Notes: generated by a model from the sequence alone, not told the origin. Shown: positions 3,608 through 60,600, numbered from the stretch's first letter. The stretch is 64,000 bases of DNA from Ostreococcus lucimarinus (GCA_000092065.1 CP000586.1), one strand, 5' to 3'. Translations and numbers: made by a program.

Positions 3608-3857
3608 GTCGACTCACGCGCGCGCTCGGCGCATCGCGCGCGCGTCGCGCGCGCGACGTCGTGTGCCGCGCGCGATGCGCCGCGCGCGCGCGTCGAGACG
3701 ATCGGCGTCGGCACTACGCGTCGCGCCGACGCGTCGCGCCGCGGCTCGCGTCGCGGCTCGACGACGACGCGCCGCGTCCCGCGCGCGCGCGCGCGGGCGA
3801 ACGCGCGCGCGCGCGACGCGCGCGAGGGCGCGCTCGAGCGCCAGCGCTGGCGCGGAC

Positions 3858-11514: not shown

Positions 11515-11531
11515 CGCGCGCGGCGTCCACG

Positions 11532-11532
<1 letters not shown>

Positions 11533-11569
<37 letters not shown>

Positions 11570-11570
11570 T
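11533..11570. repeat. (GTC)n trinucleotide microsatellite (~12 units) in the divergent SDR/TrpRS intergenic/5' region.
   Basis: Direct reading: gccgtcgtcgtcgtcgtcgtcgtcgtcgtcgtcgtcgtct. Confidence 0.9.
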
Positions 11571-11710
11571 CGCGCGTCGTTCGCATCGTCCCGTCGTCGT
11601 CGCGCGCGCCCGCCGCGCGCGCGCACCGCACGCGCGCGTCCGCGCCGTCCGCGCGCGCGCGCTCGATCGCCTCGCGCGTCGCCCGCGTGAGCGCGAGCGT
11701 CGGCGACGAC

Positions 11711-13120: not shown

Positions 13121-14200
13121 TTAAAGTTCGTCCCTCGTTCCTCGTTCCTCTTCGTCGTCTTCCACGTCGCCGACCTCCGCCAGAATCTCGTCCAGGCTCG
13201 GAATCACGGTCGCGTTCGTCGCGTTCGTCGCGTTCGCGTCATCCACCACGGTCGCGTTCACCTCGATCTCGACCGTGGCGTTCCCCTCGTTCGTGGCGTT
13301 CGCCGTCGCGTTCGCGCCGCCGCCCAAACTCTTCGGTCCGTCCTTGAGGTTGAACAAGTCCAAAATGGAATCGTGCGCCCTGTTCAAGTTGGCCACCGCG
13401 CCGCCGGTTTCTGGCGCGTAAGAGTACAGGCCGTACACCAACGCTCCGCCGACGGTCAAACTCACGAAGCGCTGCGCCAAACCGATCTTTTTCGCCTCCG
13501 CGTCAAACGCCCACATCGGCGAAAAGATTTCGTTAATCGGCACCGTATCGTCCGTCAGATTCGGCATGATCCAAAAGTGTTCCCCGGTAAAGATCCACAC
13601 CACCACGAACACCACCAACCGCACGGTGAAAATCACCGCAAACGTCACCAAAATCGCCACGCACACGTACAGGATCAACTTTTTAAACCAAATCGGCGCC
13701 AGCGGAAACAAGCACATCGCCACCACCAACACCGCGAACAATCCGCTCAGCACCACGCTCTTCCAGCTCATCGGCATCTCGTACGTCCACGCGTAGAACG
13801 CATCCTCCACGAACGTCTGATCGCGCGTTCGCATCAGGTAATGCGGAAACTTGACCAGCTTCACCCGTCCGCTTCGCGCGTGTTTTATCTCTCGCTCGCA
13901 CCGCACGATGTATCCCCGTTGCAGCAGGCACGCCCCGCAGTGCTTTATCCGCATCGCGTTCACCTCGTCTCGCTTCGCCGCGTCCGCCTCCATCTCTCGC
14001 CGCTGCCTCTCGTCCACGGCGCAGTACTCATCGAGCACGTCGACGCGCTCGCGCAGGACGCGATAGAAATCTTTCCCTCGAAAGAAATCGAATCGATTGT
14101 CCCCGAGTCGCGCGCTCCGCGTCTCGGGACCGTCGCGCCCGCGCAGGACGTACGCGAGGTGGTCGATCTCCTGCGCCGCGCGCTCCTTGCGCGCGCTCAT
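13121..14200 (-). CDS. SEC62: Translocation protein Sec62.
   Basis: 359-aa ORF with two adjacent TM helices. Strong match by recall to human SEC62 around the TM pair: ...VWIFTGEHFWIMPNLTDD versus IWLITGGRHHFWFLPNLTAD. N-terminal DNRFDFFRGKDFYRVL matches the Sec62 motif. C-terminal acidic tail ends in DEL. Confidence 0.85.
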   Translation of the reverse strand: MSARKERAAQEIDHLAYVLRGRDGPETRSARLGDNRFDFFRGKDFYRVLRERVDVLDEYCAVDERQRREMEADAAKRDEVNAMRIKHCGACLLQRGYIVRCEREIKHARSGRVKLVKFPHYLMRTRDQTFVEDAFYAWTYEMPMSWKSVVLSGLFAVLVVAMCLFPLAPIWFKKLILYVCVAILVTFAVIFTVRLVVFVVVWIFTGEHFWIMPNLTDDTVPINEIFSPMWAFDAEAKKIGLAQRFVSLTVGGALVYGLYSYAPETGGAVANLNRAHDSILDLFNLKDGPKSLGGGANATANATNEGNATVEIEVNATVVDDANATNATNATVIPSLDEILAEVGDVEDDEEERGTRDEL

Positions 14201-14276
14201 GTCGGGGCGTCGCGAATTGGCGCGCGATCGCCGCCGGTCGCGTCACATCGCGACGCCATCGCGCGGCGCCGTCGCG

Positions 14277-15335
14277 ATGGCGTCCGTCGACGTCGTCGCG
14301 GACGCGCTCGAGCGGCTCGAGGACGCGGGCGTCGACGCCGCGCGCGGCGCGGACGCGCGCGCGCTCGCGGCGTGGGCGCGCGGGGAGGCGCGACGGGACG
14401 ACGGCGACGACGACGCGCGCGTCGCGCTCGCGCGGGCGTGCGCCGCGGCGATGCGGCGCGCGGGAGGCGCGACGGGCGACGCGGACGCGCTGGTAGACGG
14501 CGCGCGCGCGAGCGGGGACGACGCGGACGCGCGCGAGGCGTTCGTGGACGCGCTGCGGCGGTGCGCGACGACGCTGCAGGTGACGGCGCTGGAGACGGCG
14601 GCGCGCGCGGCGAGGGAAGGCGGTGAAAAGCGCGCGAGCGCGAGCGAACGCGCGAGGGAAGACGCGATGGACGCGGACGAGACGGGGGAGCGCGCGGTGC
14701 GAGCGATCGAGCGGTTGGCGAGCGGACTGGAGGACGCGGCGTCGAAGTCGACGACGGAGGTTTTGGACGCGGCGACGGCTCGAGCGACGGCGACGCTGCG
14801 CGAGTTGCCGGAAAATCACGCGCGTAAGGTGTTGGACGCGTCGAGTTGGACGAACGCGCAGCGGGAGTTGATCGAACGCGTGGAGAGGGCGTTGCATGAT
14901 GAGTACAAGGCGCGGAGGGAGATGGTGGCGAAACGCGCGCAAGTGACGACGACGTCGTTTTGTTATAGCGCGAGATTGAACGCGCTGAAGGACGTGCGCG
15001 AAGAGTTCGCGCGCAGAGTCGTCAGTGAGCTTCACGTCGCGCCGCAGGTGACGATGGACGACGTGTGCGACGCTCGGTACGCGGACTTAGCCGTGGCCGG
15101 GATCAAGGTGACGGCGGGGAGCGACGGCTTACAAAGCGCGGTGAAAAAGGTGCTCATGGGAAGCGTTCCCGATCGAGGTGGTCGCACCGACGGCAGCGAT
15201 CGCGCGGCGATGCCCGCTTTCGCGGCTCGAACCGACGCGCCGAGTGGTGGTCGAGGCGGCGGCGGGCGCGGTGGCGGCGGCGACAAGCCGAAACCGACTC
15301 CGAAACCAAAGAAAAAGGGCGCCGTGCGTTGGTGA
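14277..15335 (+). CDS. FAM98 family protein (DUF2465; tRNA-splicing ligase complex-associated) with C-terminal Gly/Arg-rich (RGG) tail.
   Basis: KVLMGSVPDRGGRTDG matches human FAM98A KVLMGRVPDRGGRPNE. N-terminal DVVADALERLEDAGVD resembles FAM98 ILESLEDLGY. C-terminal GGRGGGGRGGGG. ORF listed as 14097-15335, but the start is set to ATG 14277 by homology; the first ATG (14199-14201) overlaps the Sec62 start codon. Confidence 0.7.
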   Translation: MASVDVVADALERLEDAGVDAARGADARALAAWARGEARRDDGDDDARVALARACAAAMRRAGGATGDADALVDGARASGDDADAREAFVDALRRCATTLQVTALETAARAAREGGEKRASASERAREDAMDADETGERAVRAIERLASGLEDAASKSTTEVLDAATARATATLRELPENHARKVLDASSWTNAQRELIERVERALHDEYKARREMVAKRAQVTTTSFCYSARLNALKDVREEFARRVVSELHVAPQVTMDDVCDARYADLAVAGIKVTAGSDGLQSAVKKVLMGSVPDRGGRTDGSDRAAMPAFAARTDAPSGGRGGGGRGGGGDKPKPTPKPKKKGAVRW

Positions 15336-18814: not shown

Positions 18815-19333
18815 TTAATACCCCACCGTGACGCACGCCACGCAAATCAAAAAATCATCGTTCGCGTCCCCCTGCGCCGGAATCGAAATCCAACTCCTCG
18901 CGCGCAACCCACCGGTGTCTATCTGCACGTCCACCACCTCTCCGTACGGAAACACCTCGCGCACGCGTCCCGCGTCCACCTTCGCGTTCTCCGGCACGCC
19001 CAGCTGCACGTGGATCTTCATCTTCGCGTACCCCCCCGGCACCACCGCTCGCACCGACGGCACGCTGTTGAATTCGATGGCGTTCCGACACGCGCGCACG
19101 GCCGCCTTCGTCGCGTCCTGCCCGTGCTGATCCGCGCCGAAGCCGCACTCGGCGAAGAGCGCGCGCTCGAAACCGCGCGGCGCGAAGATTTTGGTGCCGT
19201 CCTCGAACGACTCGACGAGCCCGTCGTCGCGGCGCGTCGCGGCGAACGGTCGAGATCGCGGTCGAGGTCGCCGCGGCGCGTCGCGGGCGAACGCGCGCGC
19301 GACGCGCGTCGCGGCGCGCGTCGCGGCGCGCAT
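18815..19333 (-). CDS. Small conserved-looking protein (~170 aa) with Arg-rich organelle-targeting-like N-terminus; function unknown.
   Basis: The C-terminal 140 aa of ORF 18815-20167 is complex sequence (KIFAPRGFERALFAECGFGADQHG ... FLICVACVTVGY). The upstream 280 codons are Arg/Pro/Ser low-complexity and antisense to the DA1-like gene, so the start is trimmed to ATG 19333. Confidence 0.4.
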   Translation of the reverse strand: MRAATRAATRVARAFARDAPRRPRPRSRPFAATRRDDGLVESFEDGTKIFAPRGFERALFAECGFGADQHGQDATKAAVRACRNAIEFNSVPSVRAVVPGGYAKMKIHVQLGVPENAKVDAGRVREVFPYGEVVDVQIDTGGLRARSWISIPAQGDANDDFLICVACVTVGY

Positions 19334-19368
19334 GGATGTGACGCGACGTAACGGTTTCGGCGCCACTG

Positions 19369-20892
19369 ATGGGCGCCGCGGCGAGCGACGGGCGCGACGG
19401 CGCCGATCGCGCCGCGGCGACGTCGAGCGAGCACACGGTCGGGCGCGAGGCGATGCGGCGCGCGAGCGCGGCGTCGATGCGCGTGCGCGCGGTCGACGGC
19501 GCGGCGGCGATGCCGCTCGAAGACGCGGCGCTCGCGGAGGCGCTGCGACGCGCGACGCGCGACGACGGGCGCGGACGGCCGCTCGACGACGCGTTCTTGC
19601 GTCCGGTCGCGCGTGCGCCGGCGACGGAGGAGACGGCGGACGACGAGGCGCTGGCGCGCGCGCTGCAGGCGGAGGAGCTGGCGAACGCGCGCGAGACGGC
19701 GCGAGGGACGGATGTCGACGGCGGCGCGCGCGCGCGCGCGACGTCCGCGCCCGCGACGGGCGCGTCGACGAGTGACGCGTGCGTCGGGTGCGGGGGCGCG
19801 CTCGGCGCGCTCGAGCGCGTGACGAGCGTGAGAGCGTTGGGCGGATGTTGGCACGCGCGATGTTTTCGCTGCGACGATTGCGGAGAGCAGCTTCGGGGCG
19901 TGTTCGGCGGCGGGGGGGAGTACGTCGTGACCGGTAAACCGGGCGAGGATCGTAGGTTATTTCACGCGAGGTGCTATCGGGAAAGACACCGGCCGACGTG
20001 TTGCGTGTGCGCGGCGTGTATTCCGTCTCGCGACGGGTACATACATTTCGAGACGACGCCGTACTGGGGCGAGATTTCGTGCGTAGAGCACGCCACGGAC
20101 GGAACGAATCGGTGCGATGGATGTAGGCGGTATGAAAAGCGCGGCGGTGAGGAGTACATCGCCGCACCCGATGGCAGAACGCTGTGTTTAGAGTGCGTGC
20201 AAACCGTCGTCATCGACACCAAGGACGCCGAACCGTTGTATCGCGATATCCTCGACTTTTTCGGAACGTATGGCTTGAGCGCGCTCGGTACCGGCGGGGA
20301 ATTGCCGCCACTATATCTTTGCACGCAGGACGTCATCAATCACGTCGACGAGGAAGAAAAATGGCACCAAGGTCGCACCTCGCAGGTACGCGGTATGTGC
20401 GTGTCGCACGTCGAAACGATATCCACCGTCTACCGACAACCGACTTGGAAACCATCCAACGCGGGATCAGTGTTCGACGTCTTCGGTCAGCTTGACATGG
20501 TCGAACACCGCATCCCTCGATCGACGACGCAAAAAGTCACCGCCATCATCGTCCTGTCCTGTCTTCCTCGCGTGCTCTTCTCTTCGATTCTGGCGCACGA
20601 GTGCATGCACATGTACCTCCGTTTGAACGGATTTCCCACCCTCGAACCGATCGTTGAAGAGGGTTTGTGTCAGCTGTTCGCCTTGCTTTGGATCGAGCGT
20701 CAAATGGCGTCCCAAAACGCCACCGCATCCGACGCCGCGCTCGCCGCCTATTGCTGCGAAGCCATTCGAGAAGATCCGAGCGAGATTTACGGCGTCGGCG
20801 CTCGCCTCGCCATCGACGCCTACGACGCCCACGGCCTCGTCCGCGTCCTCGATTCCGTCAGACGCACGCGTAACTTCCCCATTTCTTCGTAA
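19369..20892 (+). CDS. DA1-like protein: two UIM motifs, LIM zinc-finger domain, and DA1-type zinc metallopeptidase domain (HEMMH).
   Basis: UIM-like [12 protein letters not shown] and [15 protein letters not shown] Cys/His pattern (CVGCGGAL...[13 protein letters not shown]...). C-terminal peptidase with AHECMHMYL (HExxH) and downstream EEGLCQLFA, as in Arabidopsis DA1/DAR. Confidence 0.75.
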
Positions 20893-45018: not shown

Positions 45019-46716
45019 TTAGTCGCGATAACACACGCGCGTGGCGACGCGAACGATGTCTTCCACCGTGGGGAGGGCCATCTTCTCGAGGTTCTCGGCG
45101 TAAGGCATCGGGATGTCGACGCCGGCGATGCGCTCGACGGGGGCGTCGAGGTAGTCGAAGGCGTCCTCGTTGACGACGGTGGCGATCTCCGCGCCGACGC
45201 CGCACTGCGGCCAGCCCTCTTCGACGACAACCATGCGGTTGGTTTTACGCACCGAAGCCGCGAGCGCGCCGCGGTCGAGCGGGCGGAGCGAGCGGAGGTT
45301 GATGACCTCCGCGTCGATGCCTTGCTCGCGAAGTTGTTCGGCGGCTTCGAGGCAGTAGCCGACCATCTTCGAAAACGCGACGAGGGTCACGTCCGCGCCG
45401 GGCTTCATCACGACCGCCTTACCGATCGGAAGGACGAATTCTTCGTCCATGGCTTCCTTGGGCAACGCAAACTCTTGACCGTACAAGAGTTCGTTCTCCA
45501 AAAACACCACGGGATCCGGGTCGCGAATCGCCGCCTTCATCAAACCGCGAGCGTCTTCGGCGTCGTACGGCGCGAGCACCTTCAAACCCGGAATAGACAT
45601 GTACCACGCGGCGAAGCACTGAGAGTGCTGCGCACCGACTCCCGCAGCCGCACCGTTCGGGCCGCGGAAAACGATCGGAGCGGAAATCGCCCCGGCGGAC
45701 ATGTACAACGTCTTTGCGGCGCTGTTGACGATGTGGTCGATGGCTTGCATGGAGAAGTTGAACGTCATAAACTCGACGATCGGTTTCAAACCCATGAAAG
45801 CGGCACCAACGCCAAGACCAGTGAACCCAGCCTCGGTGATGGGCGTGTCGCGCACGCGATCGGCGCCAAACTTTTGTAACAAGCCCTTCGTGATCTTGTA
45901 CGCGCCTTGGTAGTCGCCGACTTCTTCGCCCATGATGAACACCTTTTCATCGCGCGCCATCTCTTCGCTCAGCGCGCTGTTCAGCGCGTCGCGAACCGTC
46001 ATTCTCGGCGAGTCCGCGGGAAGTTGCTTAGCGACCGGCGCGGCGCGCGCGTCTGAGACGTCCTCCGTCCGCCCGCTCGCCCGCGAGTTTCGCAGCGGCA
46101 CGCCTTGCTCTTTAATAGATCGATAATCTGGACGTTCCAGCACCGCGCGCGCCGCGGTCGCCGTCTCTGTCGCCGTCTCTGTCGCCGTCGTCGTCTCCGC
46201 CGTCTCCTCGGCGACGTAATCCTTAAACGCCGCCACATCCTCCTCGTTTTCGCACATCACGCACACCGCCTTCCCCACCGGAATGTCGTCCGCGTCCCCG
46301 CTCGGCACCAAAATCTTCGCCAAGTACCCCTCCTCCATGGACTCCATCTCCATCACCGCCTTATCCGTCTGCACCTCCGCCAGAATGTCCCCGGTCGCCA
46401 CTCGATCGCCCTCCGCCTTTTTCCAGCTCGCGATCCCGCCGCGCGTCATCGTCGGCGACAGCGACGGAAACGGAATCACCTCGTGCGGCGGGTACGTCCC
46501 GCTCGCGTACGTTCGCGCCCATCCCGGCGCGCGCGCGCGTCTCCACGCCGCGCACCGTCGCGCCGCCGCCGCATCGCGCGTCGTCACCGCGCCGTCGTCG
46601 CCGCGTCGCGTCGCCGACGCCATCGCCATCGATCGCGCGCATCGCGCGTCTCGACTCACCGTCTCGCGACCTCGCCGCGCGGCCGCCGCGCACGCCTCGA
46701 GCGCCGCGCGCCGCAT
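45019..46716 (-). CDS. Pyruvate dehydrogenase E1 component beta subunit fused to an N-terminal lipoyl domain, with mitochondrial-type presequence.
   Basis: The C-terminal 330 aa is near-identical in motif order to human PDHB ([21 protein letters not shown]..., [43 protein letters not shown]...). Upstream, in the same frame, is a lipoyl domain ([22 protein letters not shown]...[25 protein letters not shown]) joined by an Ala/Thr/Glu-rich linker. Start set at ATG 46716 (MRRAALEA...); the ORF extends to 47097 through low-complexity sequence. Confidence 0.8.
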
Positions 46717-46873
46717 CTGCGAAACGCCGTCGCGCTTTCGCGTCGCGTCGTCGCGTCGTCGCGCGTCCGTGTGCGGTCGTCGCGATCGCGAATTCGACGA
46801 ACCCCCCCACACGCGGGTGTTTTCACGCCGGCGCGCCCGTCGCGTCGCCGCGCGCGCGACGACGCGACGCGCG

Positions 46874-47251
46874 ATGCGCGACGACGGCCCGCGCGCCCTC
46901 GTCGAGGGCCTCGACGGCGCCGTCGCCCGCGCCGCGCGCGCGCTCGACGCGCACGCGCGCGGCGCGGCGGACGCGCAGGACGCGCTGTGCGCGCGCGTCG
47001 ATCGATGCGCGGACGCGCTCGAAGCGCTCGTCGACGCGATGCCGACGAGCGCGAGCGAGGCGCACGCGAAGCGACTGCGATCGCTGCGACAGCGCATCGA
47101 TGGACTGGGCGCGAGCGCGAGAGATCTGAGGGACAGGGCGCGCGCGCTGCACGACGACGCGCGCGCGAGCCGACGCGCGGATTCGAGCGCGCTCGCGGCG
47201 CGCGAGGGCGACGAGTTACCGCCGCGAGACGCGGTGTTTCGCGATGGGTGA
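46874..47251 (+). CDS. Small hypothetical coiled-coil protein (126 aa).
   Basis: Sits in the gap between the PDH E1beta start and the UMP1 stop. Amphipathic helical sequence, but Ala/Arg/Asp-biased; weak support. Confidence 0.2.
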
Positions 47252-47335
47252 CGGCGCGCGCGCGCGATCGTTGTAATGGTGTACTGTATCGATGGCTAGG
47301 AGACGCGCGACGCGCGCGCGTCGAGAGACGCGCGA

Positions 47336-47749
47336 CTAAAACCGACCGACGCTCGGGCCCAAGCCGAGCTTGGCCTCCATGACGGCGTGCGCGTCCGAGC
47401 GCGGGCCTTCCGTGCGCATGTCCTCGGGATTGAGGTAATCCTCGAACCCGAATCGATCGATGTCGCCGGTGAGAATCTGTAACCCTAATCGTTTGCTCGG
47501 CACCGGTCCCGGGAGGCGCTCGACGTCGGTCAAAATCTGTCGCTCGGCGTCCAACTTGGCCGGGATCGCGCCTCCGTGCGCGCGCGCCATCGTCTCTAAC
47601 TTCTTCGCGTACTCCGCGCCGCTCGCGCGTTCCTCTTGCATCACCTGCACGGGGTGCTTCGCGGACGACGCGCCGACGTCGCGCGCGGCGGCGAGGCCGA
47701 GTCGGAGCGTGTCCACGGGTCTTCGCAAGAATTTGATCTCGTCATCCAT
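47336..47749 (-). CDS. Proteasome maturation factor UMP1/POMP.
   Basis: ERLPGPVPSKRLGLQILTGDIDRFGFEDYLNPEDMRTEGPRSDAHAVMEAKLGL aligns to human POMP RLPFLSSSNLSLDVLRGNDETIGFEDILNDPSQSEVMGEPHLMVEYKLGL. 137 aa from MDDEIKF. The upstream part of ORF 47336-48340 is low-complexity and rejected. Confidence 0.7.
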   Translation of the reverse strand: MDDEIKFLRRPVDTLRLGLAAARDVGASSAKHPVQVMQEERASGAEYAKKLETMARAHGGAIPAKLDAERQILTDVERLPGPVPSKRLGLQILTGDIDRFGFEDYLNPEDMRTEGPRSDAHAVMEAKLGLGPSVGRF

Positions 47750-47981
47750 TTCGATCGTTCGGCGGTCGTCGAGGGCGCGGTTCGCGCGGGGAGGGCGCGG
47801 GGCGCGACGGGGCGTCGAGCGTCGGCGAGCGGCGCGCGAGGGCGGCGCGCGCGCGAGGCGGCTGGTTGTGCGGACGGCGCGCGAGGGGCGGGTCGGTTGG
47901 GTCGCGTCGCGAGGCGGAACGAGTCGCGAGGCGGCGGTTCGATTACAACACGGGTAATGTACGGCGCGAGCGCGCGCGCGA

Positions 47982-49526
47982 TCAGCGGGTGGGATCGGCG
48001 TCGTCGGCGTCGTCGGCGTCGTCGTCGGCGTCGGCGGCGGCGGCGGCGCGCGCTCTGTCCCGCCTGGCGGCGATGCGGAGCGCTTGGTGATAAATTTCGT
48101 CGTTGCGAGCGCCGAATTTGTGCAACTCGGCGCCATTGCGCCACGCCTCGACGCGAGCCATACGTCCTGCTTCATACTCTCCGAGATTTTTCTCAGCCTT
48201 GAGCCACTTGGCCCAATCGTCGGTGGTGCGCGCCGTCTTGTCTTTGCCGTACCACTCGGGAAGGTAGCCGCCGACGATGTGCGGCGCCTTCGGCGGACCG
48301 CCCTGCGCCATATAGCAGTTGACTCTATTCTTCCTTCCACCGATTGGACTCACTGAAGTGTCGCGGTCACCGCAAATGTGCAAAAGCAACCACGCGTCGA
48401 CCATGTTGGCACCGTTTTGTAGGATGATTTCATTGTTGATTTTCTCGGTAAATTTTGGACCGATGACGTACCCGGCCAAACCGCACCCAGCTTTGATGTG
48501 GTTTGCGGAGTACATGTACACCATTTCATCCTCCACGGGCCATTGCTTCACAAACTGCCCAGTCGGTTCGTCTCGAGCTTTGAGCAAAATCACGTCCGCG
48601 TTCGCCGGAGCGTTATCGATCACGCTTTGCAACGCGTACGGCTTCATGCGTATGCCACCCCAAAGCGCGTCGCTTTCAAAAATCACCGTCCACTTGTTCT
48701 TGAACTTTGAATGCAAACGCCACATGCGCATGTGCGAAAACAAACAACTGATGTGATGCGAAACCCCGTATAAAAACTTTGGCAAGACGCCGACACCGTC
48801 TTTGTTGGACTTGGCCGCAGACAACCCGCCGAACCACTTGTCTAAGTTCGCGTTCGGGCGAAGCTCTTTGAGTTCCTCCAACGCCTCTTCCGTGAGATCA
48901 AACGTTTTCGGCCACGCGTTAGCGTTCGTACCGTACTGAATCTGCACCAGCTTATCTGCTTGATCACGCGCCTCGTGCTCATGGCTGCCTGCGTTCTCAC
49001 CAAACGTTTTCACGAACTGGCGCTTCACGCCCTCCGCGCGCTTCACGTCGTACTTCAAGTCTTCGACGGCGATGACGTATATCGGCGTCTCGAGCTTCCG
49101 ACGCGTGCGGTTGCCACCGACCGCGAAATAGCGATCGGAAGAAAACGAAGGAAACGAGTTCTCGTACGAGTCTGCCTTCGCCGCTTCCAGGGCCGCGCCC
49201 TCGAGTCGCACTTGATCCATCTCCGCGAACGCCAGCGCTGGGGTGTTGACTTGCTCCAGCGGCAGGTTTGGCGTCCACACCGGCTTCCGTGCGCGACCGA
49301 GCGCGCCGCGACGCGCCACGACACTCGTCGTCAAGCTCGCGGCGGCAAAGAGCGCGCCGGCGAGCGCGAACGCGGCGATGGCGCGAGATCGTCGTCGCGC
49401 GGAAGCATCGCGTGATCCTTCCTCAAAGTATTCCGTCGCCGCGTCGCCGCTCACGCGCTGGCGTGGACGCGACGGATCGCGATCGATCAGCGTTCGCCGC
49501 TCATCGACGTTCGTTTCCAGCGCCAT
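47982..49526 (-). CDS. Type II membrane protein, putative glycosyltransferase family 25-like (tandem paralogue A).
   Basis: N-terminal signal anchor (AIAAFALAGALFAAASLTTSVV). Central motif VSHHISCLFSHMRMWRL...WTVIFESDALW resembles the GT25 (LgtB/Lic2A/collagen galactosyltransferase) signature GCxxSHxxxW...ILEDD. 514 aa. Highly similar to the adjacent gene 49638-51221. Confidence 0.5.
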   Translation of the reverse strand: MALETNVDERRTLIDRDPSRPRQRVSGDAATEYFEEGSRDASARRRSRAIAAFALAGALFAAASLTTSVVARRGALGRARKPVWTPNLPLEQVNTPALAFAEMDQVRLEGAALEAAKADSYENSFPSFSSDRYFAVGGNRTRRKLETPIYVIAVEDLKYDVKRAEGVKRQFVKTFGENAGSHEHEARDQADKLVQIQYGTNANAWPKTFDLTEEALEELKELRPNANLDKWFGGLSAAKSNKDGVGVLPKFLYGVSHHISCLFSHMRMWRLHSKFKNKWTVIFESDALWGGIRMKPYALQSVIDNAPANADVILLKARDEPTGQFVKQWPVEDEMVYMYSANHIKAGCGLAGYVIGPKFTEKINNEIILQNGANMVDAWLLLHICGDRDTSVSPIGGRKNRVNCYMAQGGPPKAPHIVGGYLPEWYGKDKTARTTDDWAKWLKAEKNLGEYEAGRMARVEAWRNGAELHKFGARNDEIYHQALRIAARRDRARAAAAADADDDADDADDADPTR

Positions 49527-49637
49527 CGCGAGATCGTCGTCGCGCGATGGAAAGTGACGCGCGACGCTGGTTCGCGACTGGTGCTACTATACAGGGTGTT
49601 ACGATGGTTATATGCTATACAGGTGACTACGTGAATT

Positions 49638-51221
49638 CTAGTGTGTCGACGGGCTTGCCGCATCTGTCGCAGCCTCGCCCGCTGCTGCTCGGGCTTTCGC
49701 GCGCTTGGCTTGAAGCCGTAACGCTTGTCGAAGCATTTCGTCGTTGCGAGCGCCGAATTTGTGCAACTCGGCGCCATTGCGCCACGCCTCGACGCGCGCC
49801 ATGCGGCCCTTATTGTACTCCGCATCGTTCTTCTCAGCCTTGAGCCACTCGGCCCAATCGTCGGTGGTGCGCGCCGTCTTGTCTTTGCCGTACCACTCGG
49901 GAAGGTAGCCGCCGACGATGTGCGGCGCCTTCGGTGGACCGCCCTGCGCGTGATAACAGTTGAGCTTATTCTTTCGTCCGCCCTCACCACTCACCCTCGG
50001 GTCGCGCACGCTACAGATGTGATTGATCAACCATGCGTCGACCATATCTGCGCCGCCACTATAAATGATCTGTTTATACAGCTTCTCCGTAAACTTTGGA
50101 CCGACGATGTAACCCGCTAACCCGCACGCAGCCTGGACTCGATTCATAGAGTACATGTAGATCATTTCATCCTCCACCGGCCACTGCTTCACGAACTGCC
50201 CGGTCGGTTCGTCTCTGGTTTTGAGAAAGATCACGTCCGCATTCGCCGGAGCGTTATCGATCACGCTCTGTAATCCTTTTGGAGGAATGTGGAGGCCTGA
50301 CCACAAGCCGTCGCTTTCGAAAATCACCGTCCACTTGTTTTTCAATTTTTGATGCAACCGCCACATGCGCATGTGGGAAAATAAGCACCCGACGTGATGC
50401 GAGATGCCGCGTACCGCTCTCGGTAATAGACCATCGTGCAGTTTCGCTGCCGCTAAGTTGGCGAACCAAGACATGTGGTTCGTCGGGCGGAGCTCTTCGA
50501 GGCCTTCCAGCGCCTCCGTCGCGAGCTCAATGGTGTGCGGCCACGCGAGGGCGTTGACTCCGTCTTGAGTTTGCACCAACTTCTTCGCCTGTGCGGCAGC
50601 TTCGTGCGTCCGATTGATGTAGTTCGGACTCTCGCTAAACGATCGCACGATCGCCGCCTTTAACGAATCCGCCTTTGCCAAATCGGGTTTGGAGTCCGCC
50701 AAGGCGATGACGTACACGGGCGTCTCGAGCTTCCGACGCGTGCGGTTGCCACCGACCGTGAAATAGCGATCGGAAGAAAACGAAGGAAACGAGTTCTCGT
50801 ACGAGTCTGCCTTCGCCGCTTCCAGGGCCGCGCCCTCGAGTCGCACTTGATCCATCTCCGCGAACGCCAGCGCTGGGGTGTTGACTTGCTCCAGCGGCAG
50901 GTTTGGCGTCCACACCGGCAGATGCGCAGGTTTCGCCCCTAACCGAGCCCCTGGATGCACGTGCATCTTCTGCGTGTGCGTCAGCATGTCCACCGTGAGC
51001 CCGACGCAGGCGAGACACGCGCCGAGGAGCGTGAACACGCTCAAGGCGAAGAATCTCCTTCGCGCCCAAAGCTCGCGCGAATCCGCTTCAAAGTATTCCG
51101 TCGCCGCATCGTCGCTCACGCGCTGTGTCGGTCGCGCGATGAGCGTCTGTCGCTCACCGCCGCGCGCGCTCGCGGTGAGTGACATCGCGCGTTCGGCGAC
51201 GGCAAGTGCGGCCGTGATCAC
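49638..51221 (-). CDS. Type II membrane protein, putative glycosyltransferase family 25-like (tandem paralogue B).
   Basis: 527 aa, same architecture as 47982-49526 (ISHHVGCLFSHMRMWRL...WTVIFESDGLW). Shares near-identical nucleotide blocks with paralogue A. Confidence 0.5.
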   Translation of the reverse strand: MITAALAVAERAMSLTASARGGERQTLIARPTQRVSDDAATEYFEADSRELWARRRFFALSVFTLLGACLACVGLTVDMLTHTQKMHVHPGARLGAKPAHLPVWTPNLPLEQVNTPALAFAEMDQVRLEGAALEAAKADSYENSFPSFSSDRYFTVGGNRTRRKLETPVYVIALADSKPDLAKADSLKAAIVRSFSESPNYINRTHEAAAQAKKLVQTQDGVNALAWPHTIELATEALEGLEELRPTNHMSWFANLAAAKLHDGLLPRAVRGISHHVGCLFSHMRMWRLHQKLKNKWTVIFESDGLWSGLHIPPKGLQSVIDNAPANADVIFLKTRDEPTGQFVKQWPVEDEMIYMYSMNRVQAACGLAGYIVGPKFTEKLYKQIIYSGGADMVDAWLINHICSVRDPRVSGEGGRKNKLNCYHAQGGPPKAPHIVGGYLPEWYGKDKTARTTDDWAEWLKAEKNDAEYNKGRMARVEAWRNGAELHKFGARNDEMLRQALRLQAKRAKARAAAGEAATDAASPSTH

Positions 51222-51390
51222 GCACGCGGGGTGTTACGAGTTCGCGCTCAAGCGCGGCGACGATGACGACGACGACGACGGGCGATTATGCGTGCGTGGC
51301 GATCATAAACGAGGTCAAAATAGTAATGAATGAGTTCTCTCATCAACTGCGTTGTTACAAATACATGGCGGTCGCGCGCTCGAGCGCGCC

Positions 51391-52056
51391 TCACGCGTCC
51401 TGCGAGTCCTTCGTCGTGTATCGCCCGAGCGCCGAATTGAAAAAGGCAAAAATACCCTTCACGATGGACTGACGAACCGCGACGACGCCCTTACCGAACT
51501 CCCCACCCGGTCCGGCGCTCGTTTCGCGAATAAACAGCGTGTACACCAGGCCGAAACTTCCGTTCACAAGGAGCATCGCCACGAGAAACAACGCCAACGG
51601 CGGTTCCTTTTCTACAAACAGATCCAGCATCTCTCCCGCCGTCTTCGACTCCCTAATGACGTCTAAACCAATCTGTTCGTCCTTCAGAACCTCGTCCACC
51701 ACCGCGCGTTCCTCGCGAACGAGCTCCGCGCGCAGCGACCCGGCGACTTGTCCGATAACCTCTCCCGGCGTCGTCGCCGCGCGCGCCGCATCACCGTGCG
51801 CGCTCGTCAGCGCCACCACCACCGCCACCGCGTTCGCCACGAGCGCGCTCGTCGCTTCCCGGCTCGTCGTCTCGCCGTCATCGCGTCCCCAGCCGCGCGT
51901 TTCCAACGCATCGCCTCGGGACGCTGTCGACGTCATCTTGTCGCTTTCGCGCGCTCTCGCGACGCGCGCGGACGACGACGCGCGTCGATCGCGCGCGGGT
52001 GCGATCGCGCGCGCGCGCATCGCGGCGTGCGCGCGCGCGGGCGCGGCGAACGGCAT
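51391..52056 (-). CDS. Hypothetical organelle-targeted membrane protein (C-terminal TM helix LALFLVAMLLVNGSFGLVYTLFI).
   Basis: 221-aa ORF with Arg/Ala-rich presequence-like N-terminus, a complex acidic/helical middle, and a single C-proximal TM segment. No family recognised. Confidence 0.35.
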   Translation of the reverse strand: MPFAAPARAHAAMRARAIAPARDRRASSSARVARARESDKMTSTASRGDALETRGWGRDDGETTSREATSALVANAVAVVVALTSAHGDAARAATTPGEVIGQVAGSLRAELVREERAVVDEVLKDEQIGLDVIRESKTAGEMLDLFVEKEPPLALFLVAMLLVNGSFGLVYTLFIRETSAGPGGEFGKGVVAVRQSIVKGIFAFFNSALGRYTTKDSQDA

Positions 52057-56200: not shown

Positions 56201-57270
56201 TTTTCCTTGGCGACCTGGATCTCCGCCTCGCCATACGCCTGCTTGATTTCTTGCGCCCAGCTAATCGGTACGCTGCCTCGTCGCCACACGTACGACGTCC
56301 AACTGCACAGTTTCCCATCCTTGGACGACACGCTCCCCCCCCGCGCGTCACCGTTCATCAACCCTGCTTCTGACGCTTCCGGACTATCCGAACGCTGCTG
56401 ATCGACCTCGCACCACACGAGCTGTTCCATCTCCACCTCGTTCCCCGGCGCGCCGACGTCGTTCAAACCTCGCGCCAAATATCGCGTCCCCGGATGCAAG
56501 CTAGACCTCTTGCCGAAAATACAAAGATTGAATAACTTATCATTTGAATCGCGCAGCTCGCGATGCTCGACTAGACCTTGAATCAGCGTCGGGCACGCCC
56601 CCGGAATCCCCGTCGCCCGCAGAGGCGCGGCGAGCGACGCGTTCCACACCCACTCCCGATCGGGATTTTGCAATCCAGCTTCGGCGTTCCCGTACGCGAA
56701 CGGACGAGAAACATCAAACGTTCGACAGTAAAAGTGCGTGCCGTCCACCGAAAACTCACACAACGACTGTAAATTCACGCGTTCGTCCCTGCTCAACCCG
56801 GCGCACGCGTTTCGCAGCGAAACGCGCACCCACGCGCTCTCCTTGACTTGCATGACTTCATCTCCGGTCGGCAACACCGCCGCCACGCGCACCGTCTTCG
56901 CGATCAACATCGCGGCGACGTCCCCGAACACCCCGTACCCCAACGCCGCGGCCCCTCTCGCGATTTCCTCGACGTATCCTCTCTCGCGAAGCGCCTCGAG
57001 CGCGCGCTCCACGTCTTCGAACGCGTCCTCCCCGACCACCCCCTTCCCCGCCATCAGCGTCCCGGTCGCGCCGCACACTCGCACCACGCGCGCACCGACC
57101 GCCTTCCCCGTCCTCGCGTCGCCATCGTCGCCGCCGTACGTTCTCAACACCACCGCGCGTTCGCCGCTCGCGCGCGCCGCCACCGCCACGCCGTCGCCCG
57201 TCCACCCGTCCCCGCTCGACGTCGACGTCCCGCTCGCGCTCCGCTCGACCCCCGACGGCGCATCGCTCAT
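53257..57270 (-). CDS. SAC-domain phosphoinositide phosphatase with internal WW domain (plant SAC9-like architecture).
   Basis: SAC catalytic motif RYNCADSLDRTNLAGFFVAAQ (CX5R(T/S)). WW domain LPPGWESRTDTTTGRTFYIDHNTRTTSWSLPE. Long C-terminal extension, ~1340 aa. Start set at MSDAPSG (ATG 57270); the upstream (GAC)n-encoded poly-Asp region of ORF 53257-57537 is uncertain. Confidence 0.75.
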   Translation of the reverse strand: MSDAPSGVERSASGTSTSSGDGWTGDGVAVAARASGERAVVLRTYGGDDGDARTGKAVGARVVRVCGATGTLMAGKGVVGEDAFEDVERALEALRERGYVEEIARGAAALGYGVFGDVAAMLIAKTVRVAAVLPTGDEVMQVKESAWVRVSLRNACAGLSRDERVNLQSLCEFSVDGTHFYCRTFDVSRPFAYGNAEAGLQNPDREWVWNASLAAPLRATGIPGACPTLIQGLVEHRELRDSNDKLFNLCIFGKRSSLHPGTRYLARGLNDVGAPGNEVEMEQLVWCEVDQQRSDSPEASEAGLMNGDARGGSVSSKDGKLCSWTSYVWRRGSVPISWAQEIKQAYGEAEIQVAKENPYRGTGTYFARVMNAYRTRAVAAANGERQSFPITCVNLLRCAPGKPEMLLSEHFHEAVRGVRQRAGLADVSVLNFDWHANCKALGEAKTVEGLWAALRRQLIECSISMGSTCAVADEDGVEKTVSSWQRGLLRYNCADSLDRTNLAGFFVAAQVLTEQCSELGLSVFNANANAGLAYGGGALSEGVLARTSSGSMLPPGWESRTDTTTGRTFYIDHNTRTTSWSLPEQDTTRSEPIAVSPNKTVESPSQAQSPDSNMGSPGQSKLLSRLNSSGQRLCQAGGAEWLDELMKSPEKAHKGAESFKWLESTVDEFRAAMLPQCLTAMVEIFLANGDFHAQMYTSTRASHTATIHLLDANPATAAAIRYKSTPTSASSTMSNAALGIQRRFHNMVSDGTKQQQFEMFLGLNHKKYFPSMANAPGRVVTRIDAASPAKLPPCVKEDAADDLMNTMLSSCGASIAAAVGPLWITPRGSHDVSFEYNVSPGAGKPEYLLVTSPVGVPEAVAPSHVDVVVRQGGRNVEHSFALPRMPAGTQFSFSIREASAAADGGFWRFDRDAVESHDNGAYTATLHIRNHLGDNEATKDTFLAIGQFELVSVQRALTNGAKTQASLGQKPPLPRSLETNEPAPSPTNSEKDYADAMHGVVPGEASLATLLELELVRMRARMAVATRDTLIVARGCRASDFDPTERLKIWLARSHLRELESERTKSSASTSTSGAISSLRSLSLSSLTESIMGPMIRPNAATLSHVTNALGSHQAAANASATFPMTVKGDPEDERCSSALDGLREISSELFAPLDHDAGGNFFVECSAEACEAEKRAEAGTRVADLIADADVRSIVDGMHTVRREYMRATFEQCSLNGASLHVGVPSSVVVGFKLAVPDLARAYAPCVLRVVAVCDVPTDDLVHVADYVIPATKPRTTLHYELGGAFAERQPKSLLFHLFSPASAAAGAPWSLHGRIGLYAHALDPPSVSPDSSPAL

Positions 57271-57295
57271 CGCGCGCGCTCGCCTTTCCCGTCCG

Positions 57296-57297
<2 letters not shown>

Positions 57298-57340
<43 letters not shown>
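57298..57340. repeat. (GTC)n/(GAC)n microsatellite (~13 units) encoding a poly-Asp run at the 5' end of the SAC9-like ORF.
   Basis: Direct reading: gtcgtcgtcgtcgtcgtcgtcgtcgtcgtcgtcgtcgtcg. Confidence 0.9.
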
Positions 57341-57341
<1 letters not shown>

Positions 57342-57680
57342 GAATCCCGTTCGCGATGGCTTCGTCCGCCTCGTCCAATCGCGACGACGTTCGCCGCGTC
57401 GCGACGCCGCGCCGCGTCGCGCGCGTCGCCGCGACGTCGCGCGTCGCCCGTCCGAGATCGCGCGTCGTCGGATGCCGCGTCGACGCGTCGCGTCGCGCCA
57501 TCGTTCCATCGCGCCGTCGGTCCATCCATCGGTCCATCCATCGGTCCGTGTCGCGCGCGCGCGCCGCGCGTCGACGACGCGCGCGTCTCGACCGTCTCGG
57601 ACGCGCGCGGCGATTCGAACGCGCGGCGACAGCTCGCGCGCCGGCCGCGCGCGACGTCGCGACGGCGCGACGACGACGCG

Positions 57681-60600
57681 ATGCGCGATGCGCGACGCGA
57701 CGCGACGACGCGACGCGCGACGACGCGCGACGACGGCGACGCGCGCGACGGCGACGCGCGACGACGCGCGCGACGCGCGATGCGCGCGTCCGAACGCGTC
57801 GAACGGTCGGCGACGAGCGACACGACGACGACGGAGACGACGCGCGACGACGCGGATGCGAGCTCGCCGCGCGCGCGACGGAGCGAGTGGACGACGACGG
57901 CGACGACGGCGACGAGAGGACGAGGGTCGTCGTTCGTCGCGACCGCGCTCACGGGGCTGACGATCGAGGACGACGACGGACGACGAGGGATCGCGCGGGG
58001 ACGGCGCGCGCGAGGCGAGACGAGCGAAGAGACGCGAGGACGAGGAGACGCGAGGACGAGGACGTTTCGGACGTCGAACGAGGACGGAGACGAGGAGACG
58101 TTGGAGATTGAGAACGAGACGCTGACGCGACGCGCGGGGGGGGTGGTTCGCGGACGATGGTCGTGCGAAGAGAAGGCGACGGCGGCGACGCGGTGCGCGT
58201 TTAAAAGCGACGGCGAGCGGCGCGGGTGGTTTTGGTGCGCGTTGCATCGAGATTCGTTCAGCTTGTTCGGGGAAAACGGGGAGATGCGGAGAATGCCGAT
58301 CGGATTCGAGGCGTGCGCGCTCGCGGCGACGAGGGAGGGGGTGTTGTTCGTCGCGAGCGACGGCGGCGGCGTGGCGCTCGTCGCGCACGCGTTGGACGAA
58401 CCGACGCCCGTCGAGGGCTTGAGCGACGGCGTCTTCGTCGCTTGGAGCGATCCACAACGATCGGACGTGTTGTTTTACGCGCATTCGCGACGTGCGCTCG
58501 AGCTTTGGACGATCACGCTCGTGCCGGCGCGGAGCGAGACTGAATTCAGCGACGCCGTGCCAGAGTTTGTCAGTCGCGCGGATCTGCGTTGGAGCGAAGG
58601 CGTCGGAGATGATTTCGCCGCCGACGCGGCGACGTACAGTTTGGCGCACGACGAAAATGGGCGCGAAATTATTTTAGTGTCCGACAATGCGGCGCAACGC
58701 GTGTGCGGGCTGTACGTAGACGCGGATGCGCCGGGAGGACACAGAGCGAGCGGGGCGATTGAGGGGACGTCGGCGATGGGCGTTTCTGGCACGCGTAAGG
58801 GCGATGGAATGTTGGACACGCTCGTGGTGTGCGTCGACGGCACGCTCGCGCTTTGCATCGGCACGCACTTGTTGTGCAAACTCGACGCGACGACGCCAGA
58901 CGGCGAGTCGACAGCTGGCGACGTACAATTTCTATCCGACAGCGTCGGTTCCGGTGTGACCGTGCACACGAGTAGACGAGGCTCGATGCGTGTGCGCGTC
59001 CCAGGATCTCTCGCATCGCCGCACGCGCGCGCATTGTTCGCTGTTCTGCGCGAAGTGTGCTCGCAAGACGACTTTTTGGATATTTTGCGGCGCATGTACG
59101 CGAGCGAGTGCGTCGGCGCCGATGACGCCGAAGCCGAGTGGGCGTACTTCGTTCAAGTGCTGCAAGCGTGGTGCGAAGTCGCCGTCAAACCGAGAGCTGT
59201 ACACGAGCTCGACGATTGGGAGTTTTCGCAGCGGTTACTAAAAGTTGGTGTCGATTCCTTGAGTGCCCGAACATCGGACTCGAATGTGAACGCGACGCGG
59301 GCGAGCGTCGTTTTGGACGCCGTGCACACGATTTACGAAGCTTCGAAAGTGGATTTGCTGACACGCTGCATGTTAAAACCATTGCGAGAGTTTGCGATGT
59401 CGTTGGTCGACGCGATCGGAACGACTAGGGAAGCGTACGCAGATTATTACGCCCGAGATTCTGGCGCAAGTATCGCGCCTTTGAGCGTTGCGGCGGCACC
59501 ATTGCAGGTGCCAGATCTATTACGCGCCGTCGAAGGAATATTCACGGGGCAGTCAGATTTTCACACACTCGTACCGCCGCTCATACTCGCAGGACTCGAA
59601 GAAAACGCGCACGTCGATGCAAACACATTTGGTGGTGACGTCGTCGTGCGTGCTCGACGTGTTGTGAAATTGTGTCACGTGTCCACTCTTGGTGCGACGA
59701 ACTCTTCGACGTCTGGCGGAGCGCTTGCGTGCGCCATGGTGGACATGGGCTTCACGCTGGAGGATCTCGAGCGCCTACCGCCGGGCCTGTCGCTCCCATT
59801 CCACGGAATATTACGCCGTTGCCGCGACTCTCCCGCTAATGGATGGCCAGTTGAGGCGTACAAGCTCATCGGCCGCCAAGACTTGGCGCTGATGCATGGC
59901 GACGACGATTTCATTCGCGACGAAAGACAACGGCGGGTATCGCGCGCGCCGGCTGCGACGACGCGAATTCAACCCGATAGCGCATCTGTGTCTGATGGTC
60001 TAGAGCATCTTGAAGAATTCGTCGGTCCTCTTCGCTTTCCTAGGGATTATAGAATTCGCGAGCTTCGCTCCATTCTGAGCACCGCTACGCCGGTTCCTAT
60101 TCAGCTCGACGAAACCGAAGGTGCAGGCGGCGACGCCGAGCAAGGTTCACAACAGCAGTCAAAGTTGTGGTTGCTAGCGGCGAGAACTGCGGCCATGCCT
60201 GTCGGTCGAGGAGCGGCTTCTTTGGGCACAGTCATCGCGAAACCAACCGAGGCGCTCCTCGTCCCTACACTTTGCCTCGCCGGATGTTTGCCCACGCAGC
60301 AGTACGCTGTGGTCAATCTTGATCTCACCGCCGCAGACGCACCGAAAGATTTCGTGAATTGGCCAGAATTTCACAACGGCGCTGCGGCGGGCTTGGCGCT
60401 TCGATCGGACGACGACAGTGGAAAGCTCACTCGAGCGTGGATCGTGTTCAATCGACCCAAACTCCCGACGTTTTCGCACGCGGGTGTTTTAATGGCGTTC
60501 GGTTTGAATGGTCATTTATCGAGCTTGACAGCGACTGACTTGTACAGATATCTCGCGCAAGAACACGAAGCGACGACCGTTGGTACGCTACTAGGTGTTG

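Follow-up and report, generated by a model that had tools for sequence, protein, structure and literature searches.

Mosaic near-identity in tandem GT25-like paralogues of Ostreococcus lucimarinus points to short-tract gene conversion between old duplicates

Introduction

Interlocus gene conversion in tandem paralogues has been described for globin, opsin and MHC genes and for yeast duplicates, and is detected by Sawyer's GENECONV test. The tandem gene pair analyzed here, from the marine picoalga Ostreococcus lucimarinus, resembles these systems in several respects: tracts ranging from tens of nucleotides to a few hundred, with near-zero silent divergence, lie within old, diverged duplicates, donor and acceptor are in tandem proximity, a divergent functional core is spared, and tract edges are polymorphic. 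It differs from the usual case in its setting within a compact picoalgal genome, in tracts that fall at the short end of the range, and in the precise bracketing of a catalytic domain by those tracts. We see no difference in kind from known interlocus conversion, and regard the locus as a textbook case that is mildly novel. Literature searches returned no earlier description of the locus, or of gene conversion at it.

The closest described proteins are those of glycosyltransferase family 25 (CAZy GT25, PF01755), which includes bacterial LOS beta-1,4-galactosyl/glucosyltransferases and human COLGALT1 (PDB 9evj). According to a 2013 survey, CAZy GT25 then had Micromonas sequences and no Ostreococcus sequences (PMC3797821).

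Results

Gene models and predicted topology

The window, by which we mean the whole stretch of DNA that was analyzed (64,000 nucleotides; GCA_000092065.1, CP000586.1), comes from O. lucimarinus strain CCE9901. Two adjacent minus-strand genes of shared architecture had been predicted in it, and both open reading frames are confirmed by exact agreement with deposited models (Table 1). The downstream gene, here called A, has the predicted 514 residues; the 527 residues predicted for its neighbor, B, belong to a GTG-extended open reading frame that reaches 51221, whereas B read from its ATG, as in the NCBI model, has 515. The two proteins are 69% identical (345/500), lower than the 75–80% of the original prediction, and the DNA is 73% identical overall. 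A repeat search found A/B similarity limited to the coding regions, and when the sequence upstream of B, the spacer and the sequence downstream of A were compared by eye for flank homology that would define a duplication unit, no obvious similarity was apparent. The spacer differs in length among wild haplotypes, being 97 nt in contig L002, 379 nt in L011 and 392 nt in L012-type contigs.

Kyte-Doolittle profiles and an AF2 model (pLDDT 77) both predict a type II, Golgi-type topology for these proteins, in which a short N-terminal tail leads into one hydrophobic helix, followed by the stem and then the catalytic domain. In the AF2 model of B, a long helix occupies residues 27–76 and is followed by the stem, with the GT-A domain starting at residue 157. 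The domain limits given in Table 1 were taken from AF2 secondary structure and hhalign.

Table 1. Positions of the two genes, their predicted domains and the near-identical blocks, counted from the first nucleotide of the window
Feature	Position	Strand	Details
Gene A	47982..49526	-	514 aa; ORF; exact match to XP_001418480.1 / ABO96773.1 ("predicted protein")
Gene B	49638..51185	-	515 aa from ATG at 51185; translation identical to XP_001418481.1 / ABO96774.1
B-A spacer	49527..49637	.	111 nt
Predicted signal-anchor (transmembrane) helix, A	49326..49382	-	residues 49-67; Kyte-Doolittle 19-residue maximum 1.85
Predicted signal-anchor helix, B	50997-51053	-	residues 45-63; Kyte-Doolittle 19-residue maximum 2.31
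Block 1, A copy	49084..49284	-	201 nt, 1 mismatch vs 50719-50919; A residues 81-148
Block 1, B copy	50719..50919	-	B residues 89-156; fragment of 109 variable sites, p<1e-4
Putative catalytic GT-A / GT25-like domain, A	48309..49082	-	residues 149-406; E-S-D at 48669-48677; apparently not recently converted
Putative catalytic GT-A / GT25-like domain, B	49950..50717	-	residues 157-412; E-S-D at 50310-50318
Block 2, A copy	48192..48309	-	118 nt, 3 mismatches vs 49833-49950; begins at A residue 407; 52 variable sites, p<1e-4
Block 2, B copy	49833..49950	-	begins at B residue 413
Block 3, A copy	48094..48155	-	62 nt, 0 mismatches vs 49735-49796; A residues 458-478; 52 variable sites, p<1e-4
Block 3, B copy	49735..49796	-	B residues 464-484

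A mosaic of near-identical blocks

The discrete near-identical blocks that had been predicted within these diverged paralogues are real, with perfect runs of 160 nt (49125–49284 = 50760–50919), 84 nt (48210–48293 = 49851–49934, the core of block 2), 62 nt (48094–48155 = 49735–49796) and 40 nt (49084–49123 = 50719–50758) standing out from the 73% background. Their predicted coordinates required correction, the register of the pairs being off by 1–2 nt. Block 1, taken literally, would contain mismatches at 150 of 201 positions, although its size of about 200 bp and its single mismatch were right; block 2 does extend over 118 bp and has three mismatches, not two; and block 3 was correctly placed in B and misplaced in A, at 48096–48157. 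Block 1 encodes the luminal stem, which joins the membrane helix to the catalytic domain, block 2 of A lies directly after the last strand of that domain, and block 3 encodes C-terminal helices. The predicted homogenization of the stem and C-terminal region alongside a diverged catalytic region is therefore correct and sharper than claimed, since the blocks directly adjoin the GT25-homologous domain at either end.

The mosaic far exceeds what chance would produce. When mismatch positions were shuffled 10,000 times, the longest run averaged about 21 nt and reached a maximum of 58 nt, compared with the 160 nt observed; at silent sites the longest run covers 63 codons, whereas none of 20,000 shuffles exceeded 39. 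A GENECONV-type permutation, which used only sites that vary across A, B and three orthologues, yielded three significant fragments (sizes and p values in Table 1) where the simulated maximum was 32 sites. Divergence was also calculated by segment, as Nei-Gojobori dS and dN for block and non-block codons together with a sliding pS profile. Rather than being uniform along the alignment, A-B dS is 0.02–0.22 per block (0.02 in block 1) and 0.08 when the blocks are pooled, with a block dN of 0.007, in comparison to a dS of 1.26 and a dN of 0.35 outside them. The profile gives the same picture, with A-B pS at 0.00 in the block cores and 0.4–0.84 elsewhere.

At least 14 independent contigs, obtained from different samples by different pipelines and 98–99% identical to the window, carry the tandem pair and its blocks. 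Contigs with the same pair and synteny (L001–L005 and L011–L020) include three of chromosome size, 824, 826 and 848 kb, and every long contig has exactly two genes.

Recent transfer between old duplicates

We consider it very probable that A and B are old duplicates in which three short tracts have recently been overwritten by non-allelic gene conversion. Ectopic gene conversion between the tandem copies was the original prediction, and it fits the silent-site, constraint, permutation, assembly, outgroup and haplotype tests alike. The ancestral state would have been a single gene encoding a type II membrane protein with a GT-A-fold glycosyltransferase domain remotely related to GT25, which would have been duplicated in tandem in the lucimarinus lineage after its split from the other sampled Ostreococcus lineages. 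This duplication is probably old, as silent sites between the copies are near saturation outside the blocks. Homologous recombination with the neighboring copy as template would then have overwritten three tracts of about 60–200 nt, one in the luminal stem, immediately before the catalytic domain, and two in the helices that closely follow it. The catalytic domain appears to have escaped recent conversion, with purifying selection acting in both copies (dN/dS about 0.2); conversion there may have been selected against, or may have been blocked by too little uninterrupted identity, the longest perfect A/B run in the domain being 26 nt. The number and direction of the conversion events are not recoverable from sequence.

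Wild haplotypes suggest that the latest transfers are of roughly the same age as the polymorphism within the species, with tract edges that still vary among haplotypes. Across nine A and eight B alleles, block 1 has zero fixed A/B differences and the mismatches of the reference strain are private: the single block 1 mismatch, a G at 49124, occurs in CCE9901 alone, as does, in block 2 of B, a G at 49850 that gives E instead of K. The mismatch that bounds block 3, at 49797, is polymorphic among B alleles. Within block 2, a T/C polymorphism (48216/49857) is common to both paralogues; recurrent mutation could also account for this, which by a rough estimate would be a fairly improbable coincidence. 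One wild contig, L022, is a recombinant, an A-type allele that carries three linked B-type bases within 4 nt, at 49083, 49082 and 49080, and is A-type from 49067, its junction falling within 12 identical nucleotides. Twelve nucleotides are too few for an assembly chimera at k>=21, so this tract edge was not made by an assembler and the exchange is recent. The population evidence for transfer, namely L022 and the shared T/C site, comes from a small sample; segregating variation in the tracts supports the predicted view that conversion may be ongoing.

Two other sets of polymorphisms were considered as marks of conversion and rejected. The B differences at 49791, 49789 and 49777 (L002-type) could be read as a recent transfer from A to B in the lineage of the reference, a reading that six more haplotypes made less parsimonious: every other B allele matches the reference, so the cluster probably arose in the L002-type lineage. 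The polymorphic A sites 49019, 48575 and 48499, at each of which one allele equals B, are unpolarized and fit an ancestral shared state equally well.

Alternative explanations

Homogenization could instead have proceeded mainly by unequal crossing-over, through fused or triplicated arrays that were later resolved, rather than by non-crossover conversion. Both reciprocal hybrid genes do exist as contigs, B5'-A3' in L006 and A5'-B3'-spacer-A5' in L021, and L022 could be another such hybrid: it starts just 27 nt before its junction and so could be a product of unequal crossover rather than of a longer conversion tract. However, L006 and L021 are contigs of about 1.7 kb whose junctions lie inside the 201-nt repeat, the layout of L021 is cyclic, as expected from a de Bruijn-graph artifact, and the long contigs keep to two genes. 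Moreover, all three blocks are patches with divergent sequence on either side. A single crossover cannot make flanked patches, so that each of them calls for two exchanges, which is formally conversion, and we judge this explanation quite unlikely.

The mosaic by itself does not show which segments came later, the identical or the divergent ones, and the pair could thus be a recent duplication in which divergent segments of one copy were replaced by a foreign or introgressed allele, or diverged fast under positive selection. The faster evolution of A and its unusual substitutions, described below, would be in keeping with this. As had been suggested for dating the duplication, orthologous loci were compared, and the syntenic site holds one gene in three outgroup lineages (L007, O. 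tauri (L008) and L009/L010), which indicates that the duplication is lineage-specific and probably old. In the middle segment, which separates block 1 from block 2, A and B differ by a dS of 1.38 and a dN of 0.29, and they are mutually closest relatives there, with dN to the outgroup of 0.44 for A and 0.37 for B and a range of 0.37–0.50 to any orthologue. The divergent segments also combine saturated silent sites with a dN/dS of about 0.2–0.3, unlike rapid adaptive divergence. With A/B alleles and the A/B chimera P0002 set aside, the best match among 5.8 billion proteins is only 57% identical. A recent origin would further require four separate replaced segments within one gene, and the polymorphic junction of L022 involves A and B sequences only. 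We therefore regard a recent duplication as very unlikely.

Strong constraint on protein or nucleotide sequence, for instance from an embedded RNA element or a regulatory site, might keep the blocks identical without any transfer of DNA, and the blocks do encode structured parts of the protein (pLDDT 80–90 in the stem and C-terminal helices). However, silent sites are identical across 63 successive codons, and block codons diverge between species to the same extent as the remainder of the gene: from the closest orthologue (L007), A and B differ in block codons by a dS of about 1.2–1.35 with an amino acid identity of 0.67, and from O. tauri with an identity of 0.48–0.49. The pS to the orthologue is 0.4–0.9 across the profile and 0.4–0.74 in block 1, with values of 0.56–0.74 in that block where A-B pS is 0.00. 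Because orthologues are normally diverged inside the blocks, constraint is not the cause of the A/B identity. The truly conserved motifs (HH.GCLFSHMRMW, FESD and GADMVDAW) lie outside the blocks and differ at silent sites, and an Rfam search of 47000–52000 gave no match. On these sequence comparisons, constraint is effectively refuted, its probability being very small indeed. Nor is there a signal of GC-biased conversion in GC3, which is 0.77–0.80 in the blocks and 0.70 outside, since the single-copy orthologue has an equal offset.

That the blocks are collapsed or chimeric reads in one assembly, a concern raised beforehand, is close to inconceivable, for although short metagenome contigs hold reciprocal A/B chimeras whose junction lies in block 1 (L006/P0002 and L021/P0036), such that the 201-nt repeat may mislead short-read assemblers, the pair with its blocks is found again in many independent contigs, three of them chromosome-length, both window proteins match the deposited NCBI models exactly, and the CCE9901 genome was Sanger-sequenced and finished.

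Relationship to GT25

The original description of both proteins as GT25-like holds as remote homology and not as Pfam membership. Direct PF01755 scores are 15.4 bits for A and 17.0 bits for B, from 28–34 residues around HH.GCLFSHMRMW, and fall below the 24-bit gathering score; it is for this reason that "GT25-like" here means remote homology only. A profile of the A/B family reaches true PF01755 proteins that themselves score 74–91 bits, and when aligned by hhalign with bona fide PF01755 proteins it gives a probability of 99.35% over 142 columns (E 6e-21). In Foldseek searches of the PDB, all 13 matches with E <= 0.001 were COLGALT1 or "Glycosyltransferase family 25 protein" chains (E 6.5e-6 to 9e-4); the TM-scores of these matches are modest, at 0.5–0.57 on the target, and sequence profiles confirmed that these chains belong to GT25. 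The family profile had no matches to PDB sequences at E<=10, so that the link to GT25 required a fold search and profile-profile comparison.

The A/B family shares with GT25 a predicted GT-A fold, with a profile-profile match that spans about 150 residues, and it has conserved equivalents of the G-x-G-C-x-x-S-H...W motif and of a later invariant Asp. A putative counterpart of the acidic, DxD-type F-E-D-D end of the central strand is FESDG, which is aligned with FEDDA: both families keep the E and the final D without exception, and the middle D is replaced by an invariant S, giving E-S-D rather than E-D-D. Beyond this and the scores under the Pfam cut-off, the A/B family differs from GT25 in having an extra N-terminal tail, a membrane anchor, a stem of about 70 residues and a helical C-terminal extension of about 100 residues. 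In profile searches, full-length matches were confined to the closest relatives, and more distant relatives matched the catalytic domain only. Taken together, the profile and fold evidence makes A and B remote GT25 relatives with putative enzyme activity, and places their uncharacterized and apparently algal-restricted family on a distant branch of GT25.

At four positions of the catalytic domain, A departs from a residue that all 14 of the other aligned family sequences keep: G266S, G293A, F320L and D380N (B numbering). These changes suggest that the specificity or activity of A may have shifted. A is also the faster-evolving copy by middle-segment dN.

Discussion

The observations could be joined in a broader, speculative reading, to which we give rather low probability and under which the mosaic would be more than the outcome of passive recombination. 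The stem and C-terminal helices would form an accessory module that selection keeps identical through recurrent conversion, conversion into the catalytic domain would be selected against because A has gained specificity for a different sugar or acceptor, with a bearing on cell-surface glycans, and L006, L021 and L022 would be real one- or three-gene wild alleles. Oligomerization, Golgi retention and binding of a shared partner are examples of the role that such a module might have.

None of these findings overturns current understanding. They carry a practical warning for metagenome catalogs, in which the 201-nt block coincides with chimeric protein predictions (P0002 and P0036), and they flag copy A as a candidate for altered specificity. 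If the hybrid contigs were real wild alleles, they would show directly that non-allelic recombination is frequent in O. lucimarinus. Short-tract conversion between A and B, the reading we prefer, would make the locus a clean and well-controlled case of this process in a streamlined marine picoalga, and because single-copy syntenic outgroups and many wild haplotypes are both available, it may be used to estimate the length and rate of conversion tracts in Ostreococcus from metagenomes.

A mosaic of near-identical blocks in a tandem gene pair

An exact-sequence look-up identifies the adjacent paralogues A and B as O. lucimarinus CCE9901 XP_001418480.1 and XP_001418481.1, both labelled 'predicted protein' in a record of 818,664 bp. 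Their DNA is 73% identical and their proteins 69% (345 of 500 aligned residues), below the 75–80% first estimated. The alignment contains perfect nucleotide runs of 160, 40, 84 and 62 nt, and the discrete near-identical blocks described in the original prediction were recovered by pairwise alignment, shuffling and a GENECONV-type test, with their registers shifted by 1–2 nt (table); read literally, the pairing first given for block 1 has 150 mismatches in 201 positions. The longest run compares with a mean of 21 and a maximum of 58 nt in 10,000 shuffles of the mismatches, and when only third positions of identical amino acids are considered, a silent-site run of 63 codons exceeds the simulated maximum of 39. 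The GENECONV-type test, based on 1001 sites that vary between A, B and three orthologues, yields three fragments, 109, 52 and 52 consecutive concordant sites long, whereas simulated fragments never exceed 32 (p<1e-4 each).

Positions of the paralogues and shared blocks in the window, with segment-wise Nei-Gojobori divergence between A and B
Feature	Position	Strand	Description	dS	dN
Gene A	47982-49526	minus	ORF, 514 aa; XP_001418480.1		
Gene B	49638-51221	minus	GTG-started ORF; deposited model XP_001418481.1, 515 aa, ATG at 51185		
Block 1	49084-49284 = 50719-50919	minus	201 nt, 1 mismatch	0.02	0.007
Block 2	48192-48309 = 49833-49950	minus	118 nt, 3 mismatches		
Block 3	48094-48155 = 49735-49796	minus	62 nt, 0 mismatches		
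Three blocks combined				0.08	0.007
All non-block sequence				1.26	0.35

Silent divergence contrasts sharply between the blocks (dS 0.08) and the sequence outside them (1.26). The proposal of ectopic gene conversion between tandem duplicates is essentially right, and recent DNA copying between A and B explains the blocks. Unequal crossing-over may add to the homogenization, as reciprocal A/B hybrids exist in the short metagenome contigs L006 (B5'-A3'; 1754 nt, source of protein P0002) and L021 (A5'-B3'-spacer-A5'; 1767 nt, source of P0036), although alone it cannot yield internal patches. Both junctions fall inside the 201-nt identical block and the layout of L021 is cyclic, as is typical for a de Bruijn-graph loop; these contigs are probably assembly chimeras, real unequal-crossover alleles being possible. 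The hybrids P0002 and P0036 stand in protein catalogues as separate entries.

Gene order across the pair is APC1, a Sac/WW protein, an RCC1 protein, a small ORF, B and A, followed by UMP1, a snapin-like protein, a lipoyl-E1beta fusion, MSH6 and a LYR protein, neighbours as expected on the compact chromosome of a green alga. Beside the pair, the gene for a pyruvate dehydrogenase E1-beta-like protein (window 45019-47097, minus strand; 12896-14506 in contig L001) is called as an N-terminal biotin/lipoyl-attachment domain fused to transketolase-type domains (PF00364 + PF02779 + PF02780), a fusion also kept in O. tauri and the other lineages; from its first ATG the window ORF is 692 aa, far longer than the 536-aa gene call. 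Every few kb the window also has sharp GC peaks of 0.72–0.77 over a background of ~0.55–0.63 (3001-4000, 11001-12000, 14001-15000, 19001-20000, 46001-48000 and 57001-58000).

An old duplication with recently copied blocks

In the orthologous loci of L007, O. tauri (L008) and L009/L010, gene order is identical and the gene is single-copy, with no second copy detected by tblastn within ±8 kb flanks; MSH6 of these lineages is 76–79% identical to that of the window. Between blocks 1 and 2, in the middle segment, neither paralogue has a closer relative than the other one: dN is 0.29 between A and B, versus 0.37–0.44 to L007, the closest outgroup, and 0.45–0.50 to O. tauri. Together with the single-copy outgroups, this places the duplication within the lucimarinus lineage. 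By these distances it is old, with non-synonymous divergence amounting to about three quarters of that to the closest outgroup, and A is the faster-evolving copy. It is unlikely that the duplication is recent and that four segments were afterwards replaced or diverged rapidly: silent sites in these segments are saturated and dN/dS is low, A and B remain nearer to each other there than to any orthologue, and the best other match among 5.8 billion proteins, A/B alleles and the chimera P0002 aside, is only 57% identical.

Selective constraint on the blocks is effectively excluded. Their codons show nothing unusual in conservation between species, with dS of 1.2–1.35 and 67% amino-acid identity to L007 and 48–49% identity to O. 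tauri, and in a 30-codon sliding profile pS between A and B drops to 0.00 in the block cores whereas orthologue pS holds at 0.4–0.9. The motifs that are conserved family-wide (HH.GCLFSHMRMW, FESD and GADMVDAW) are located between the blocks, and there the silent sites of A and B do differ. As the A/B region also has no Rfam family match, constraint fails to account for the blocks. An assembly artefact is effectively excluded too, since the tandem pair recurs with the same synteny and 98–99% identity to the window in contigs L001–L005 and L011–L020, which come from various samples and pipelines and include chromosome-scale sequences (824, 826 and 848 kb among the sizes).

Exchange among natural alleles

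Across 9 A and 8 B alleles, block 1 has zero fixed A/B differences, and the two in-block amino-acid differences of the reference strain (G at 49124 in A and G at 49850 in B) are private to CCE9901. Both paralogues carry a T/C polymorphism at homologous position 48216/49857, which is only suggestive, the chance of coincidence being put at roughly one in ten. Stronger evidence comes from L022, an A-type allele with B-type bases at 49083, 49082 and 49080 that is A-type again by 49067. This switch falls within only 12 identical nucleotides, too short for false bridging by a de Bruijn assembler with k of at least 21, so the junction must be present in the reads. Recombinant A/B junctions thus segregate in the wild, arising from a longer conversion tract or from a crossover. 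The description of the exchange as ongoing thus appears reasonably supported.

Other variation was seen at the locus. L002-type B alleles (protein P0037) have three substitutions within 15 nt of block 3 (49791, 49789 and 49777) that change RVEAWRNG to RVAAWRSG, matching neither A nor the remaining B alleles. In L001, a 542-kb ENA contig, the B copy (8357-9904) has a 1-nt insertion, its frame is interrupted by four stops and the gene call is only 425 aa, reflecting either an assembly error or a pseudogenized allele. In A, a GAC/GCC-type triplet repeat encodes an acidic C-terminal tail (DADDDADDADDAD; window 47993-48050), which differs between natural alleles in length and sequence through 3-nt indels and D/A swaps. 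The B–A spacer (49527-49637) measures 111 nt here, compared with 97 nt in L002-type alleles and 379–392 nt in L011/L012-type alleles (L011 4579-4957; L012 4579-4970). The ~280-nt additional segment, without significant match elsewhere in the window, is flanked by a short ATAACCATCGTA-like repeat, which suggests microhomology-mediated deletion or insertion.

Conversion brackets a GT25-like catalytic domain

The GT25-like assignment holds as remote homology, which is solid, and not as direct Pfam membership: Glyco_transf_25 matches reach 15–17 bits, below the 24-bit cut-off, and cover ~30 residues. A PDB sequence-profile search with the family found no match. A profile of 15 members retrieved 151 representatives from 1.8 billion proteins, the distant ones scoring 74–91 bits on PF01755, and hhalign against a PF01755-type profile (probability 99.35%, E 6e-21) paired the FESDG motif with FEDDA of GT25 and HHVGCLFSH with G.iGC.LSH. 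With an AlphaFold2 model of B (pLDDT 77, pTM 0.74), all 13 Foldseek PDB hits at E <= 0.001 were human COLGALT1 or bacterial 'Glycosyltransferase family 25 protein' chains, an assignment upheld by their sequences. According to a 2013 survey, CAZy GT25 at that time contained sequences from Micromonas and none from Ostreococcus (PMC3797821); given this and the sub-threshold Pfam scores, we term A and B a divergent GT25-like family, which appears confined to algae, rather than established GT25 members. A and B each have a single hydrophobic helix near the N-terminus, followed in the model by a stem, a GT-A domain (B residues 157–412) and a helical C-terminal extension, the usual type II arrangement of Golgi glycosyltransferases.

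Block 1 (B residues 89–156) stops one residue short of the first catalytic-domain strand and block 2 starts at residue 413, directly past the last, so that recent conversion spans the stem and C-terminal helices and halts at both catalytic borders, in agreement with the predicted contrast between homogenized flanks and a diverged catalytic region. Within this domain dN/dS is ~0.2, indicating purifying selection in both copies. A alone is substituted at four positions that the 14 other aligned family sequences keep invariant (G266S, G293A, F320L and D380N, B numbering), B has no such change, and the catalytic domain of A may have shifted in function. We infer that conversion in this domain is selected against or, with a longest remaining perfect run of 26 nt, mechanically suppressed.

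At this locus, old tandem paralogues have undergone interlocus gene conversion. The process itself is well known; here it is unusually cleanly documented, tightly bracketing the catalytic domain in a GT25-like family without prior characterization.
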